A stretch of DNA of 64,000 nucleotides. Source: a virus. A program made the translations under genes and the position numbers. The DNA is taken from positions 32,001 through 96,000 of IMG/VR virus record IMGVR_UViG_3300037524_002067; one strand, given 5' to 3'. The notes under the pieces were generated by a model, which saw only the letters and a program-made list of their open reading frames with translations, was not told the origin of the DNA and ran no database searches. Position 1 is the first letter of the stretch. Every line of letters starts with the position of its first letter. Shown in pieces: positions 16,210 to 45,565 of this stretch.

Positions 16210-16233
16210 ACATACTGGGAAATTAAAAACTAG

Positions 16234-16318
16234 AAGCGGGGGTCAGATTCGAACTGACGTTCTCTTTCGAGTTAAAGGTTATGAGCCTTCGCTGGATCCA
16301 ACTCCAGTCGACCCCGCA
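16234..16318 (-). tRNA. tRNA-Met(CAT), initiator-like, long variable arm
   Basis: GCGGGG/CCCCGC acceptor with 1:72 mismatch, loop CTCATAA, GTTCGAATC T-loop. Confidence 0.7.
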
Positions 16319-16323
16319 ATTTG

Positions 16324-16468
16324 TTGCAATGGTTGGAATTGCACCAACTTTCTCTGACTTAGCGCCAGCGAGTTTTAGGTAGATAAATCCACAAACTACA
16401 AACACATATTACGTAATTCTATGTTTGCTAAAAGGATTCCATATAACCTTCTGTCTCTCTCCATTGCG
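16324..16468 (-). ncRNA. tRNA-like RNA with large internal insertion
   Basis: CGCAATG/CATTGCA acceptor, GTTGG-TGCAATT-CCAAC T-arm, 145 nt, no clear anticodon arm. Confidence 0.4.
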
Positions 16469-16481
16469 AGAGTTTGTTCTG

Positions 16482-16565
16482 TACCAGCGGTGGGACTCAA
16501 ACCCACAATACCACAGGGTATCCGCTTATGAGGCGGACGCAATTATCACATCTGCTCACACTGGC
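16482..16565 (-). tRNA. tRNA-Met/Ile2(CAT), long variable arm
   Basis: TCCGC-CTCATAA-GCGGA anticodon arm; GCCAGTG/CGCTGGT acceptor. Confidence 0.7.
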
Positions 16566-16606
16566 ATATTTATAGACACCATTATAATGTCTATAAATTT
16601 TTCTTG

Positions 16607-16689
16607 TTGAATAGACAGGATTTTAACCTGTGAACACGTTATGTGATCTGTGTTACACACAGACGGTTTTAACACTTACCTACTATCCA
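16607..16689 (-). tRNA. degenerate tRNA-Tyr(GTA)
   Basis: TGGATAG/CTATTCA acceptor, TCTGT-GTGTAAC-ACAGA arm, long variable arm, atypical T-loop. Confidence 0.45.
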
Positions 16690-18028: not shown

Positions 18029-18228
18029 TTGTTTCTCTTTCTTCTTTCTACCGCATTGTTATAATCTACAACACACGTATCAATGTCATCTTCATATATA
18101 CGACATTTAATTTTTAAATTGCTTATTACATAAAACATTGACATAAACATCAAAGCTACAATAAGCGTTTTTTCCTTTTTTCAATTTCAATTTTTCATTT
18201 TTTTGTTTTTTTTTATTTGTTTTTCTTG

Positions 18229-18301
18229 AGCAGAAGAGGAGAATCGAACTCCCGTCCACGACTTGGCAAGCCATTGTAATAAGCCACTATACGACTTCTG
18301 C
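18229..18301 (-). tRNA. tRNA-Gly(GCC)
   Basis: cloverleaf, loop TTGCCAA, U73. Confidence 0.75.
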
Positions 18302-18375
18302 AGGAACAACCTCAGTCAACATTTTGCTACGAGTTACTGACGTAGTTTGGAGTTAACCTCTGGTTGCATTTTTTG

Positions 18376-18446
18376 AGCAAAGTATCGGATTCGAACCGCA
18401 CCCCGACATTGGAAGTGTCGTGCTCACCCTTCGAGCTCTACCTTGC
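18376..18446 (-). tRNA. tRNA-Gly(TCC)
   Basis: GACA-CTTCCAA-TGTC arm, GCTC/GAGC D-stem, U73; overlaps the HNH stop codon. Confidence 0.7.
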
Positions 18447-20063: not shown

Positions 20064-20135
20064 TGTTCGTTGTTTTTTTACTATTATAAATAATAACAAA
20101 AAAACTTCGGGCACAGGTTTTTAAAAAATAATTTG

Positions 20136-20221
20136 TGGAAATGACGGGACTCGAACCCGCATTAGAACTTTCGTCCGTCCTGATTGCAAATCAGGTGCCT
20201 AACCAATTAGACTACATCCCC
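20136..20221 (-). tRNA. tRNA-Ala(TGC), long variable arm
   Basis: G3:U70 pair, CCTGA-TTTGCAA-TCAGG arm. Confidence 0.75.
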
Positions 20222-20226
20222 ATTTG

Positions 20227-20300
20227 TGGAGGTAAACGGATTCGAACCGATGACCCCCTGCGTGCAAGGCAGGTGCTCTAGCCAGCTGAGCTATACCCCC
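20227..20300 (-). tRNA. tRNA-Ala(TGC)
   Basis: canonical cloverleaf, G3:U70, loop CTTGCAC. Confidence 0.92.
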
Positions 20301-20946: not shown

Positions 20947-20988
20947 CGCTCTTTCTCGCCTTTCATAGATTTTGTTTTTAATTGTTTG

Positions 20989-21070
20989 TTGGGGTGATCG
21001 GATTCGAACCGACTCAGCCAAGGCAACAGTTTTACAGACTGTCCTAACTCTCCAGCGTTAGCGCACCCCA
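20989..21070 (-). tRNA. tRNA-Tyr(GTA)
   Basis: ACAGT-CTGTAAA-CTGT arm, long variable arm, GGTTCGAATCC. Confidence 0.75.
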
Positions 21071-21078
21071 ATTTATTC

Positions 21079-21156
21079 TGGTGGGATAGAAGGGACTTGA
21101 ACCCTATGCGGTTGAGTTTTACAGACCCTCCGACTCTATTGCCTTGGCATTATCCC
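21079..21156 (-). tRNA. tRNA-Tyr(GTA), atypical, encoded CCA
   Basis: loop CTGTAAA, GGGATA/TATCCC acceptor, ACCA end. Confidence 0.55.
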
Positions 21157-21275
21157 AGTTGTAATTTTTGTCTAGGTTTTCTTCCTAACAATTGCTTTTA
21201 GAAGCTGACACATCCTCTGACGTGCCATCCCATGTACTTAGGGTAGCCTTTCAGCAACTTCTAAACTTTTTAATG

Positions 21276-21362
21276 CGGGACTGAAGGGAGTCGAACCCTC
21301 TACGAGATTTTCATCTGCACCACATAGACAGTGTGGCATACCAGCCGTTATACGCCAGCCCC
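21276..21362 (-). tRNA. tRNA-Asp(GTC), long variable arm
   Basis: CCACA-CTGTCTA-TGTGG arm, G73. Confidence 0.75.
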
Positions 21363-21393
21363 AATTTGATTTTTATCTAGGTTTTCTCCTAGT

Positions 21394-21469
21394 TGGCAGT
21401 GCATACGGGGGTCGAACCCGCTCCTCAACCGCAGACAACGGCGCATCTTAACCATTTGACCTATGCACT
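21394..21469 (-). tRNA. tRNA-Asp(GTC)
   Basis: loop TTGTCTG, GCCA end. Confidence 0.75.
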
Positions 21470-21480
21470 ATTTTTATTCT

Positions 21481-21551
21481 TGTCATCAAGGCTGGATTTC
21501 CACCAACAACCTCCCTGTGCACGGGACTCTTAGATGTTGAGCTACTTGATG
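21481..21551 (-). tRNA. degenerate tRNA-like RNA (anticodon uncertain)
   Basis: CATCAAG/CTTGATG acceptor, TAGCTCA D-start, TCCC-GTGCACA-GGGA arm. Confidence 0.4.
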
Positions 21552-21645
21552 AAGTATGATGGTAATTGTGAAGCTATGTTTTTCGATTGGAAGTCAAATG
21601 CCCTAACGGGCTAGAAGTAAGCAAACACATGGCCATCAATAAGTA

Positions 21646-21723
21646 CGCTGCAGTGGGATTTTCACCCTCGGTTACATCTCATTCCTCACGTGGAATGTAT
21701 CTTAAAAGTTAGACGACACAGCG
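21646..21723 (-). tRNA. degenerate tRNA-like RNA (anticodon uncertain)
   Basis: CGCTGTG/TGCAGCG acceptor, CATTCC/GGAATG arm, GGGTGAAAATCCC T-arm. Confidence 0.35.
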
Positions 21724-21802
21724 ATTTAATTTCCTACGGGGTTGAAACTTGCGTATGAAGAGCGACTTCACAGAGACAAATAACAACTCACCCGTTTATG
21801 TG

Positions 21803-21876
21803 TCGAGTAGACTGGAATCGAACCAGCTAACTGATGCTTCCAGGGCACCCGTGCTTATAACCTTAGTCACTACTCG
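21803..21876 (-). tRNA. tRNA-Pro(TGG)
   Basis: C1:G72, A73, GGTGC-CCTGGAA-GCATC arm (C at position 33). Confidence 0.65.
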
Positions 21877-22508
21877 TTTTTTTTATTATTTTTACCAGCA
21901 TAAGTTTTTGTTTGACTGTGACAATTAGGACAAAGAAATCTTAAATTTTCTATTCTATTATCGTTATTCACCCCATTCTTATGATCAAGTTGTAATACTA
22001 TTTTTTCATTCATCCACTCTCCTCTATTTTTGCATTTTTCACATGCATATTCTAATAATTCTTCTTTTAACAATCTTCTTTTTAAAGCGTGTTGACTGTA
22101 ACTTGAATTTATGATTAATATCTCATTTATATCTTTTCCTTTTTGTCCAGTTCTTTCTCTTCTAATGCCTTTAAATTTTTGACCTTCAAAATGAGAATTA
22201 TCTAAGTTGTTTTCAACAATTCTTTTTTTTATAGTTCTTATATTAGAACCTGTTGTTTTAATTTTAAATCCTCTACATATTTCAGAATATGTTGTTGATG
22301 TTTTTACCAATTCTTTTAATTTAGTTACATCATATTCTCTTCCAAGTCTTATTTTAAAATGTTTTAAATTTAAATTTAATTCTAATGCTATTTCTTTTAT
22401 TTTATTAAAAGTATAACCATTGTTTTTTAAACTCATTTTAGAACATACCTCACTCAAAGAAGTACTATTTTTTATTGCACGTTTTAATTTATCTTTATCT
22501 ATTTTCAT
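21870..22508 (-). CDS. HNH homing endonuclease
   Basis: LQLDHKNGVNNDNRIENLRFLCPNCHSQT. Confidence 0.85.
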   Translation of the reverse strand: MKIDKDKLKRAIKNSTSLSEVCSKMSLKNNGYTFNKIKEIALELNLNLKHFKIRLGREYDVTKLKELVKTSTTYSEICRGFKIKTTGSNIRTIKKRIVENNLDNSHFEGQKFKGIRRERTGQKGKDINEILIINSSYSQHALKRRLLKEELLEYACEKCKNRGEWMNEKIVLQLDHKNGVNNDNRIENLRFLCPNCHSQTKTYAGKNNKKNE

Positions 22509-22634
22509 ATATTTTATTTATAAAAAAATACGAAAAATAAAAGTATTAAACAAATTATTTCAATCAATTAGACCAACTCACGCAACTCCTGATATGAAGT
22601 TTTTGATTTAAAACAAAAGCAACAAAACAAATCG

Positions 22635-22707
22635 TCAGGGTGACAGGGGTTGAACCTGCGACCTCCTGGTCCCAAACCAGGCGCTCTCCCAACTGAGCTA
22701 CACCCTG
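22635..22707 (-). tRNA. tRNA-Pro(TGG)
   Basis: canonical cloverleaf CAGGGTGTAGCTCAG...TTTGGGA. Confidence 0.92.
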
Positions 22708-22789
22708 AAGTGCTGTGGGTTTTGGAGTACCCACAGCTAAATTTCCCAATATGTCAAAGATCTCATGTTATTTTTTAACTGAAATAACC

Positions 22790-22828
22790 AAAACAAAAAA
22801 CCCGCTCTTTTTAGGGAGCGGGTTTGTT
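22790..22828 (-). terminator. attenuator terminator of tRNA array 1
   Basis: AAACCCGCTC-loop-GAGCGGGTTTTTT between the leader ORF and the first tRNA. Confidence 0.85.
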
Positions 22829-22855
22829 AATTCCTTTTGTTTGTATCACTTGTTT

Positions 22856-22984
22856 TTATCCAAGCTTTCTAAAAGTCAAAACATATCCGCTCCCATAGCT
22901 ATAATCATAAGCTGGGGCATACCCTGCACCGCCCATCATCGGGGCTGCTGGAGTAGTTGCTGAATATGTAGTTACTGTTTTCAC
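22856..22984 (-). CDS. attenuator leader peptide for the Pro/Asp/Tyr/Ala/Gly/Met tRNA array
   Basis: GTG start; MKTVTTYSATTPAAPMMGGAGYAPAYDYSYGSGYVLTFRKLG; contains GGGAGCGGATATGTT complementary to the terminator 5' arm. Confidence 0.8.
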   Translation of the reverse strand: MKTVTTYSATTPAAPMMGGAGYAPAYDYSYGSGYVLTFRKLG

Positions 22985-22994
22985 CTGTATTGTT

Positions 22995-23062
22995 TCTTTT
23001 AAATAGTTAGAAAAAATGTTTTTCTGAAAATTTATACGTACAAAGATATGTTAAGTTTCAAG
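22995..23062 (-). promoter_or_regulatory. compound promoter of tRNA array 1
   Basis: TGAAAC-N16-CGTATAA, overlapping TATCTTTG, and downstream TATTTA; near-identical layout at 45435-45500. Confidence 0.65.
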
Positions 23063-23115
23063 AATACGCAAGTTTTTTTTGAAAAAATCTTCTAAGTGAT
23101 TAAAAATCAGCTGAA

Positions 23116-23661
23116 TTAATTTTTTGTACTCAACATTAAATCCTTCACGTTCTGTACACAAAATCCATGACCTTCCCTTCTGATCAGCTCATAAATCACA
23201 CCTGTAAGCTCAGATGGTTTTGTGAATACCTGCTCTAATCCTGGGCATTTCAATGGTTCTTTAGAAAGAAATTCTCCATATCCTTTATCGGCCCACTCTT
23301 GCATTGTAGCTGCCACATCATCCACCTGGAAGGCCATGTGATGAATTCCTCCTACACCATCTCTAGCTTTAACCCAGTCTCCAACAATAGAACCTTCTTC
23401 GCCATCAGATATAAATATCTCTGGTGCCACATGATAAACCTGGTTAATATCACCGAATGGAAAGTTTATTGCCCAAGGCAAATTCTCGCTCACCTTTTCA
23501 GATGGCACAAGCACAAGACAATTGGCCTCTGTACCATCATCAAATTGCAATTTAAAGCCATCTGGAAGATCTTCAGCAATTCTATACCCAAGGCAATCAA
23601 TAAAGAACTGAGCTGTTTTATGACGGTTTTTGACCCTATAGGCCACATGGTCTAATCTCAT
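23116..23661 (-). CDS. VOC/glyoxalase superfamily protein
   Basis: RLDHVAYRV...GGIHHMAFQVDDV...YELIRR. Confidence 0.8.
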   Translation of the reverse strand: MRLDHVAYRVKNRHKTAQFFIDCLGYRIAEDLPDGFKLQFDDGTEANCLVLVPSEKVSENLPWAINFPFGDINQVYHVAPEIFISDGEEGSIVGDWVKARDGVGGIHHMAFQVDDVAATMQEWADKGYGEFLSKEPLKCPGLEQVFTKPSELTGVIYELIRREGHGFCVQNVKDLMLSTKN

Positions 23662-31616: not shown

Positions 31617-33428
31617 TCATTTTACCATAAGGATCTCAACCCTACGGTTTTTTGCTTTTCCAGCACTTGTGTTGTTATCAGCTATAGGTTCACTTGGACC
31701 TTTACCAACAACTTGAACGAAGCGGTTATTTGGATAATTTTCGTATGATTTATTTTGCAACCATTTTTTTACAGCATCAGCTCTAGCTTGAGAAAGCTCT
31801 CTATTTACGTCAGCACTTCCAGTGTTATCTGTGTGGCCAAAAATTTCTACTTGTAAACCACTTGCAATATTCAACTCATCGAACAATTGATTTAGTGTTT
31901 GTTCAGCCGCAGGAGTAAAGTTTGCGCTGCCAGTTTCAAATTCAATTTTCCACACACGCTTAGCGATTGTTTCTTTGTTCTCGCTGGTATTCGAGTACTC
32001 AATTTTATCAGCAGAAGTTATGTTTGTAGCTCTATTTCTAGCGCCTTGCAAATAACTCAAATCGAGAACCTCTGAAATATCAGGATATGTTGCAACATAT
32101 TCAGGGTAAAGACTGCTCACTACATCGCCAAACTTTTTATAGACTGAAGCGTACACATTTGTTTTGCTTTGACCAATACCAAACAACTCAAGGTTGTCAG
32201 AGAGGTTATGAACACGAGACCCACCAAGCTCAACAATGTTGTTGTTCGAATTATCAATTTGTTTAGCGCCTTTGTAATATTTTACCCAATAGTTGGCATC
32301 GCCTTCGTTGTATACTTTAGCACTAAGCTCACCAGCTTTGTTAAGCGCTTCAGGGTAAGTTTTTACCTGATCACCTGCGGCAGAAACAGCAAGAATAAAA
32401 TTCTCTACAGTTTTGCGATTGTCTTGCAACCATTTTTTTACACCAATTACCACATTTGGCATTTGTGAACGATATTCAGCAGTAGATACAATGCGTACAA
32501 GACCACCTTTTTTCTCAACAACATTAACGTCACCAGGAGTCCATGTAGTAGTACAATCTACAGTAATACGCTTCTTATCTCCTGTTTTTACAGTCTTTCC
32601 AGTTTGTGGATCTACTTTTACAACAGGTCTTTCTTCGGAATAACCAGTGATATATTTCTCAGCAGCTTCCAAAAAACCTGAACAACCAACAAAATTCATT
32701 GCATCAGGATTGTAAGTTTTTTCGTCAGTGTTCACAGGAATTCCGTTGTCACCACACCATTTAATTACAATGTTCCAATCACCATCGCGTAAAACCGCTG
32801 AGCAAACTGCGCCTCTAGCTTTTTGTGGGTTGGCTTTAATTTCGGGGGAAGCCATAAACGCATCTTCACCTTGAGATTTACCGCAAGAGAAAACAATTTG
32901 CGCAACATAATCATCACCCAACTTCTTCAACTCATTATTAATGCCAGCGAGTAAAGCGGGAGCGCCATCACCCATGATAGCAAAAAGATTAGTGCCCACT
33001 GCTGTAGCTGGATTGTTTTTATAATCATTGGCAAACTTAATCAAATTTTGCCCCATTTGATTACAATCATCTTGACGATTTATTGTAAGGTTTACACCAT
33101 TAAGAGCCATTAAACTGCCCTCTGTGGTGTTTGGACCACCATTAGAATAAATTAACCCCATTTGAGAATTCCAAGCCATTATATCCATGTTAATTTTTGG
33201 TGAATTAACAGTGGCAATCTGGTCGGATGGAAGTGGAATAAATTTAACCGCTCCACCAGCGATATCTTTTGGCGCATCAGGAAGTACTACTGAAGCCACC
33301 TGCACCGTTTGTTTTAGTTCTTTCGGGAAGAACAACTCTGTGTTCACAACTAAGTGGAATAAGCCAACTACTACAGCTACAACCACTCCAATTAAGATAA
33401 GTTTGAACGATTTTTTTACTTGTGCCAT
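31617..33428 (-). CDS. ABC substrate-binding protein fused to OmpA-like peptidoglycan-binding domain
   Basis: C-terminal FETGSA...GHTDNTG...LSQARADAV...NRRVEI. Confidence 0.85.
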   Translation of the reverse strand: MAQVKKSFKLILIGVVVAVVVGLFHLVVNTELFFPKELKQTVQVASVVLPDAPKDIAGGAVKFIPLPSDQIATVNSPKINMDIMAWNSQMGLIYSNGGPNTTEGSLMALNGVNLTINRQDDCNQMGQNLIKFANDYKNNPATAVGTNLFAIMGDGAPALLAGINNELKKLGDDYVAQIVFSCGKSQGEDAFMASPEIKANPQKARGAVCSAVLRDGDWNIVIKWCGDNGIPVNTDEKTYNPDAMNFVGCSGFLEAAEKYITGYSEERPVVKVDPQTGKTVKTGDKKRITVDCTTTWTPGDVNVVEKKGGLVRIVSTAEYRSQMPNVVIGVKKWLQDNRKTVENFILAVSAAGDQVKTYPEALNKAGELSAKVYNEGDANYWVKYYKGAKQIDNSNNNIVELGGSRVHNLSDNLELFGIGQSKTNVYASVYKKFGDVVSSLYPEYVATYPDISEVLDLSYLQGARNRATNITSADKIEYSNTSENKETIAKRVWKIEFETGSANFTPAAEQTLNQLFDELNIASGLQVEIFGHTDNTGSADVNRELSQARADAVKKWLQNKSYENYPNNRFVQVVGKGPSEPIADNNTSAGKAKNRRVEILMVK

Positions 33429-45250: not shown

Positions 45251-45271
45251 TTTTCTTAATTTACTTTAAAT

Positions 45272-45303
45272 AAAAAACCCTGGCTTTTTGTGAGCCAGGG
45301 TTT
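45272..45303 (-). terminator. attenuator terminator of tRNA array 2
   Basis: AAACCCTGGCT-loop-AGCCAGGGTTTTTT. Confidence 0.85.
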
Positions 45304-45341
45304 AGAGTCCGTTGAATTAAGGGTTAAATATCTTTCTTCAG

Positions 45342-45431
45342 TTATGACAATAAATGGCCTGGCTCGGTTGCTCTACTTGAGCTCGAACTCCTTCTCCAAG
45401 ACCATGATCTATTGTTTGTAACTGTTTTCAT
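45342..45431 (-). CDS. attenuator leader peptide for the Ser/Arg/Trp tRNA array
   Basis: MKTVTNNRSWSWRRSSSSSRATEPGHLLS; contains GAGCCAGG complementary to the terminator 5' arm. Confidence 0.85.
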   Translation of the reverse strand: MKTVTNNRSWSWRRSSSSSRATEPGHLLS

Positions 45432-45434
45432 TTG

Positions 45435-45500
45435 TTATAAATATGCTAAAAATTCTTTTTTCTGAAATTTTATACGTACAAAGATAGAATAAGTTTCAAC
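45435..45500 (-). promoter_or_regulatory. compound promoter of tRNA array 2
   Basis: TGAAAC-N16-CGTATAA plus TATCTTTG plus TATTTATA; paralogous to 22995-23062. Confidence 0.65.
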
Positions 45501-45565
45501 AAGAAACAAGTTTTTTTACAAAATTTTTTGTTTGTTGCTGATTTTTAGGTAGATAAAATTTTTAA

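Follow-up and report, generated by a model that had tools for sequence, protein, structure and literature searches.

The attenuators of enterobacterial amino-acid operons (trp, his, leu and pheA, and the multivalent thr and ilvGMEDA) have been reviewed in PMC1183508. The unit described here, which stands ahead of an array of phage tRNA genes, resembles them in its short leader ORF with control codons, its alternative 2:3 and 3:4 hairpins, its intrinsic terminator and the use of several amino acids per leader. It differs in that it would regulate tRNAs and not biosynthetic enzymes, in the number of amino acids involved (six), in belonging to a set of modules that covers nearly all 20, and in the placing of segment 2 entirely within the ORF, 7 codons ahead of its stop. 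Moreover, the Rfam models of the Thr, Trp, Leu and Phe leaders score only 21-25 bits on this unit against cut-offs of 41-55, placing it outside the described operon-leader families.

In Escherichia coli the pheST attenuator, with its pheM leader, acts on a cellular synthetase specific for a single amino acid, and not on tRNA genes. Its likeness to the phage system lies in attenuation of the decoding machinery itself, and one sister unit of the phage includes a TrpRS-type gene. The T-box riboswitch (RF00230) also antiterminates on the state of tRNA, but it binds uncharged tRNA directly and involves no leader translation; RF00230 had no match in the unit, either at the gathering threshold or at E values up to 5.

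Why phages carry tRNA genes has been an open question for about 50 years (PMC10264068). Phage tRNAs can counter tRNA-cleaving defence, as has been hypothesised (PMC10264068) and as reported for the tRNA-Lys of T5 against PARIS (PMC11464382) and for tRNA-Tyr against retron-Eco7 (PMC11555353). Both are cases of strong-promoter expression for which no demand-driven switch has been described, and the term "attenuation" is absent from PMC11555353. A large accessory tRNA array in the cyanobacterium Anabaena PCC 7120, the trn operon, is under the control of TrcR and silent until translation stress (PMC10272220). That system differs in relying on a protein repressor, of the RHH type, acting at initiation and in comprising one operon, and its abstract reports no codon specificity (PMC10272220); the architecture of the phage unit needs no TrcR-type repressor. 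We found no paper on attenuation control of phage tRNA genes in the literature searched, in which most subscription journals are absent.

The leader, terminator and array

The window, that is the whole 64,000-nucleotide stretch analysed, runs from base 32001 to base 96000 of one virus record, which has 154,343 bases and is 59% complete. Genes for terminase, replicative helicase, DNA polymerase and ribonucleotide reductase are present in the record, and the closest cultured relative is distant (best helicase match ~34%). RNA polymerase beta and sigma-70 region 1.2 gave no match, a weak negative in a record only 59% complete. ARAGORN identifies 37 tRNA genes in the genome, all on the minus strand and clustered by amino acid.

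The unit opens with a putative promoter (23041-23071, minus strand, as is every feature of the unit and array) that has TTG near -33 and TAnnTTTG at -7, the Bacteroidota housekeeping consensus given in PMC6847099; its function is inferred. An extended form of this motif is common to the promoters of 4 of the 5 arrays in the genome. Since the promoters fit the Bacteroidota consensus, the host is probably a member of the Bacteroidota, an inference drawn from promoter form only. The extended pattern had no match across 185,579 species genomes, and a synthetase query yielded no confirmed locus. Ahead of the leader is a TATTTA element (22998-23005) that is kept in orthologs and may be a phage late promoter, its role being inferred. 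Genome-wide, 33 of 116 long ORFs have TATTTA(T/A) in the 45 nt before them, where ~3% would be expected; the motif is a candidate phage late promoter or initiation element.

An earlier note on this DNA had claimed a GTG-initiated ORF of 42 amino acids in which 21 of the 23 residues from 12 to 34 are Pro, Ala, Met, Gly, Tyr or Asp. Both claims hold: the ORF (22856-22984) has 42 codons and a GTG start, without a Shine-Dalgarno sequence and with A-rich DNA upstream, and the two exceptions are Ser29 and Ser32. Orthologs start with ATG or GTG, and their indels keep the frame and their stop is retained. Codons 12-28 (22901-22951) encode 17 unbroken residues of the six kinds, the longest such run in the six frames of the 154-kb genome (the next is 11). 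When the leader was shuffled 20,000 times with dinucleotides kept, no run of 17 arose in any frame (maximum 12), whilst 2 of the 20,000 shuffles reached the total count of 24 such residues. As the shuffles preserve G+C and yet fail, G+C content alone does not explain the run. The spread over many synonymous codons in this control region was no greater than chance (P 0.32).

Of residues 12-34, only codons 12-28 make up the inferred sensor. Codons 29-35 do not belong to it, Tyr30-Val35 being constrained by RNA pairing as part of the switch; as codons 31-35 are the partner of the terminator 5′ arm, the Gly and Tyr found there are more plausibly explained by the demands of pairing. Two close orthologs differ at 3 places in codons 12-30, each time synonymously, and by six amino-acid changes in codons 31-40 that preserve the 9-bp helix. 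A similarity search with the leader region gave matches only at tRNA-Pro genes. Contigs from RNA libraries of two studies cover the leader and terminator (22746-22942 with no differences, and 22740-22938 with 4 differences and 1 gap). These were not counted as evidence, since contigs reveal neither strand nor transcript ends nor abundance and could derive from DNA.

The intrinsic terminator (segments 3:4) and its U tract occupy 22790-22825, with the stem at 22825-22798 (-16.5 kcal/mol, z -5.4). Segment 2, the antiterminator strand, corresponds to codons 31-35 (22880-22894) and is complementary to the terminator 5′ arm; the match previously noted, 13 of 15 positions, is correct, and the helix was also seen on folding. 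The alternative 2:3 fold is predicted at -25.5 kcal/mol (z -4.95). Folding and covariation indicate that 2:3 and 3:4 are mutually exclusive, the covariation coming from two sequence types. In four orthologs the 5′ arm pairs at 8-9 of 9 positions with its own antiterminator, and cross-pairing of the two types lowers the Watson-Crick pairs from 7-8 to 2-5. Moreover, four columns change in all three strands (5′ arm, 3′ arm and antiterminator) among the four orthologs, again with only two sequence types. Base pairs in the orthologs were registered by script; a MAFFT alignment was out of register and uninformative for pair counts. For the majority of 28 units, the 5′ arm finds its best partner at the 3′ end of the ORF, downstream of the control codons. 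A candidate protector strand, segment 1 (codons 6-8; 22962-22969), could pair with codons 33-35, though it is not significant alone (p ~0.06, fold z -0.75). Helices of this type recur in different reading frames in several leaders and reach p<0.05 in 16 of 40 units, which is weak support.

About 85 nt separate the U tract from tRNA-Pro, a stretch that holds a boxA-like element and a hairpin and no TAnnTTTG. The element (22751-22762) recurs after many units; its putative likeness to boxA would make it a possible antitermination signal of the rRNA-operon type. The 9-bp hairpin (22712-22737; -17.2 kcal/mol, z -4.65) has no U tract and abuts the 5′ end of the first tRNA; it is possibly a processing signal or a minihelix.

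The earlier note gave the downstream tRNAs as Pro, Asp, Tyr, Ala, Gly and Met, and ARAGORN at default settings agrees, with 11 genes from 22707 to 16233, all of those six kinds. The first is tRNA-Pro(UGG) at 22634-22707, followed by an inserted HNH endonuclease gene (21870-22508, PHROGs match). With relaxed settings the scans also pick up a second Pro gene, another Tyr gene and, at 21551-21482, one degenerate element whose anticodon is GCA (Cys-type); the leader composition does not match this element. The stretch 20988-21876 holds an atypical tRNA-Pro(UGG), the degenerate element, two tRNA-Asp(GUC) and two tRNA-Tyr(GUA). Two tRNA-Ala(UGC) lie at 20135-20300, tRNA-Gly(UCC) and tRNA-Gly(GCC) at 18228-18446, and tRNA-Tyr(GUA) with two CAU-anticodon tRNAs, called Met (they could be Ile2), at the distal end (16233-16689). 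The array contains tRNAs, HNH and genes of unknown function, and no amino-acid biosynthesis or synthetase genes. A second HNH endonuclease gene was recognised by eye from HNH-like motifs at 19059-18424; the presence of HNH genes in the array varies among relatives. Amid the canonical tRNAs, degenerate or elongated tRNA-like elements were seen at 21800-21480, 19580-19100 and 16800-16320 (minus strand), some with UCC-type loops and one with the GCA anticodon; these could be pseudogenes, nuclease-resistant variants or decoys.

Matching of leaders to arrays

A sister unit in the window (45270-45509, minus strand) has the same promoter type, a Ser/Arg/Trp leader (45431-45342) and a terminator, and precedes Ser/Arg/Trp tRNAs and a synthetase gene. 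The latter, a class I aminoacyl-tRNA synthetase gene of the Trp/Tyr type (42763-41945, minus strand), directly follows the Trp tRNAs, has homologs named TrpRS and is probably under the sister attenuator. A gene with an ArdC-type anti-restriction domain (46864-45566, minus strand) lies immediately upstream of the sister unit.

Further units with leaders rich in the remaining amino acids had been predicted, and three were found outside the window; all five arrays have a promoter, a short ORF and a terminator. An Asn/His/Thr/Lys/Ile-rich leader precedes Asn, His, Thr, Lys and Ile tRNAs together with CAU tRNAs called Met, and a Leu/Cys-rich leader precedes Leu and Cys tRNAs. The third, rich in Arg, Leu, Phe and Val, precedes an array cut by the contig end, which a close relative with an identical leader completes as Phe, Val, Leu and Arg-ACG. 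When leader composition was permuted against array isotypes, as the note had also suggested, the true pairing of five leaders with five arrays ranked 1 of 120. The MKTVT start that the note saw in two leaders is indeed common to those two; however, it occurs in only 2 of the 5 leaders in the genome and is not a general signature.

Relatives were gathered by promoter and peptide searches. A loose DNA pattern was also tried, and its 22 matches were mostly unrelated. Orthologs of the Pro/Asp/Tyr/Ala/Gly/Met unit, with ~55-60% peptide identity, stand ahead of Pro/Asp/Tyr/Ala/Gly/Met arrays. Elsewhere, tRNA-Gln arrays stand behind poly-Gln leaders that have terminators, and tRNA-Lys arrays behind leaders of poly-Lys. 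A complete 519-kb phage partitions its tRNAs differently (Phe/Ser/Asn/His/Thr; Lys; Gln; Leu/Arg/Glu/Ile; Gly/Met/Val/Trp/Tyr/Pro/Ile/Asp/Ala/Thr), and again the true matching of leaders to arrays ranks 1 of 120. For a 385-kb phage with a third partition, into seven blocks, the true matching ranks 1 of 5040, and in three more phages it ranks 1 of 6. These phages are related and the tests are therefore not fully independent; the three partitions differ.

The matching extends to isoacceptors. Leader codons AGA/AGG go with Arg-UCU/CCU arrays and CGC/CGT with the Arg-ACG array; likewise, ATA goes with Ile-UAU arrays and ATT with Ile-GAU arrays. In two lineages the initiator-type CAU tRNA-Met, which could not be sensed by elongation, directly follows the promoter with no attenuator. 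Many units leave only 10-35 nt between the terminator and the first tRNA, too little for a promoter, so that no promoter of the array's own fits there. Some related phages have small tRNA clusters without a recognisable unit. A candidate undivided form was also seen (L118:1715-8900, G017), in which ~30 tRNAs of all isotypes lie behind one leader containing 19 of the 20 amino acids.

The proposed switch and its rivals

We observe the parts and their order, the match of composition, the covariation and leaders that co-vary with the partition of arrays across phages. We consider it highly likely that the unit is a ribosome-mediated transcription attenuator that gates the tRNA array by the decoding speed of the array's own codons. 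Leader translation, stalling, readthrough, dependence on tRNA supply and purpose are all inferred, in the absence of ribosome-profiling data, unassembled RNA reads and bench work. Host RNA polymerase would start at the Bacteroidota-type promoter and a host ribosome would translate the leader. Were Pro, Ala, Met, Gly, Tyr and Asp codons read fast, the ribosome would sit over codons 31-35, no timely antiterminator would form, the terminator would fold and the transcript would end at ~22790. Were any cognate tRNA scarce, cut or uncharged, the ribosome would linger in codons 12-27, leaving codons 31-35 to pair with the emerging terminator 5′ arm, and the polymerase would enter the array. The tRNAs so made would restore supply and close the switch, a negative feedback on decoding, and five or more such modules would share out nearly the whole code. 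The phage thus probably makes these tRNAs mainly when their cognate codons are read slowly.

The geometry of this scheme was tested in a model only, with the ribosome treated as an unpaired mask and equilibrium folding computed before the 3′ arm is made. Segment 2 is free with the ribosome up to codon 27 and covered at codons 30-36; in five orthologs the probability of 2:3 is ~1 as long as the A site has not passed codon 27 and ~0 when it is at codons 30-36. At equilibrium, a ribosome that has moved beyond codon 38-40, or that sits at the stop codon, again allows 2:3 to form, and when the complete transcript is folded the terminator prevails for the majority of stall positions. Therefore, the decision must be kinetic. 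It is probably helped by the helix of codons 6-8 with 33-35 closing behind the ribosome, a suggestion that remains weakly supported.

One objection would be that the terminator merely ends the transcript of the upstream glyoxalase-family gene, that the tRNAs have promoters of their own and that the ORF arose by chance in a structured RNA rich in G+C. No terminator lies between that gene (which ends at 23116, and for which a search found no viral loci) and this one, which may serve both. However, the unit's own promoter lies between the gene and the leader, G+C-preserving shuffles fail, and both frame and composition are kept in orthologs. The earlier note had itself named tRNAs with their own promoter as a refuting case; this condition did not hold, there being no Bacteroidota-type promoter between the terminator and tRNA-Pro. 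We regard this explanation as largely refuted and very improbable. Putative late-promoter motifs do occur inside the array, at 20092, 19598 and 19083, and could transcribe distal tRNAs without the switch; together with the pre-leader motif they may add a second, partly unregulated phase. It is also conceivable that control of the hairpins lies with a protein of the phage or host, or that they are leaky, with the leader translated for timing or as a peptide and its composition not a signal. Our model cannot show that segment 2 is released by stalling, and the conserved promoter-proximal and boxA-like motifs suggest protein factors. We nonetheless think this unlikely, as it leaves unexplained both the tracking of three tRNA partitions by the leaders, down to isoacceptors, and the placing of control codons before the antiterminator strand.

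What the switch would respond to is a separate matter. Classical attenuators sense charging (PMC1183508), a stalled ribosome cannot distinguish uncharged from missing tRNA, and one sister array includes a synthetase gene. Hence amino-acid starvation (uncharged tRNA) or a general slowing of ribosomes under host starvation remains a possible, if doubtful, signal, the arrays then tuning phage translation to nutrient state instead of countering defence; this reading concerns purpose and is compatible with the attenuation mechanism. Against it, leaders track the isoacceptor split and not biosynthetic pathways, and amino-acid groupings vary between phages. Moreover, extra tRNA cannot cure an amino-acid shortage, so the likeliest signal is loss of functional tRNA. 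We infer that the attenuator may serve to replace tRNAs that host anticodon nucleases or infection-driven turnover have removed, with less certainty than attaches to the mechanism. More broadly, we lean somewhat towards the hypothesis that a clade of large phages monitors host decoding by codon group with a panel of attenuators spanning the code, so that only a tRNA block that is depleted, by a host anticodon nuclease for instance, is switched on. This would be an inducible, self-limiting, RNA-only counter-defence, its leaders rewritten as tRNA genes move between arrays.

If the switch is real, it argues that these phage tRNAs answer depletion and are not a constant supplement for codon bias, and the question of their role becomes testable with a 250-nt reporter in Flavobacterium. 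Leader-peptide attenuation would be extended to tRNA genes and to viruses. Moreover, such leaders would be natural codon-specific sensors of tRNA loss, usable for finding tRNA-cutting defence systems in Bacteroidota.

Other features of the window

A frame of the PTH2 family of peptidyl-tRNA hydrolases (50390-50000, minus strand) begins with ATG and a Lys codon followed by TAG at codon 3. A promoter like that of the attenuator unit precedes it, and a CUA-anticodon tRNA lies downstream (49552-49480). The early amber codon, at codon 3 or 4, is kept in two relatives that also have a CUA tRNA nearby; TAG is otherwise a normal stop, though a rare one (10 of 126 ORFs). A release-factor-like frame with an RF-1 domain and GGQ (4030-3347, minus strand) is interrupted at two points, around codons 44 and 52, by in-frame TGA, possibly for autoregulation by readthrough. 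Lastly, an RNA free of ORFs is predicted at ~8530-7630 (minus strand) between a Bacteroidota-type promoter and a terminator, and 7664-8069 matches GOLLD (RF02032) at 145 bits (E 2.5e-40), just below the gathering score of 150.
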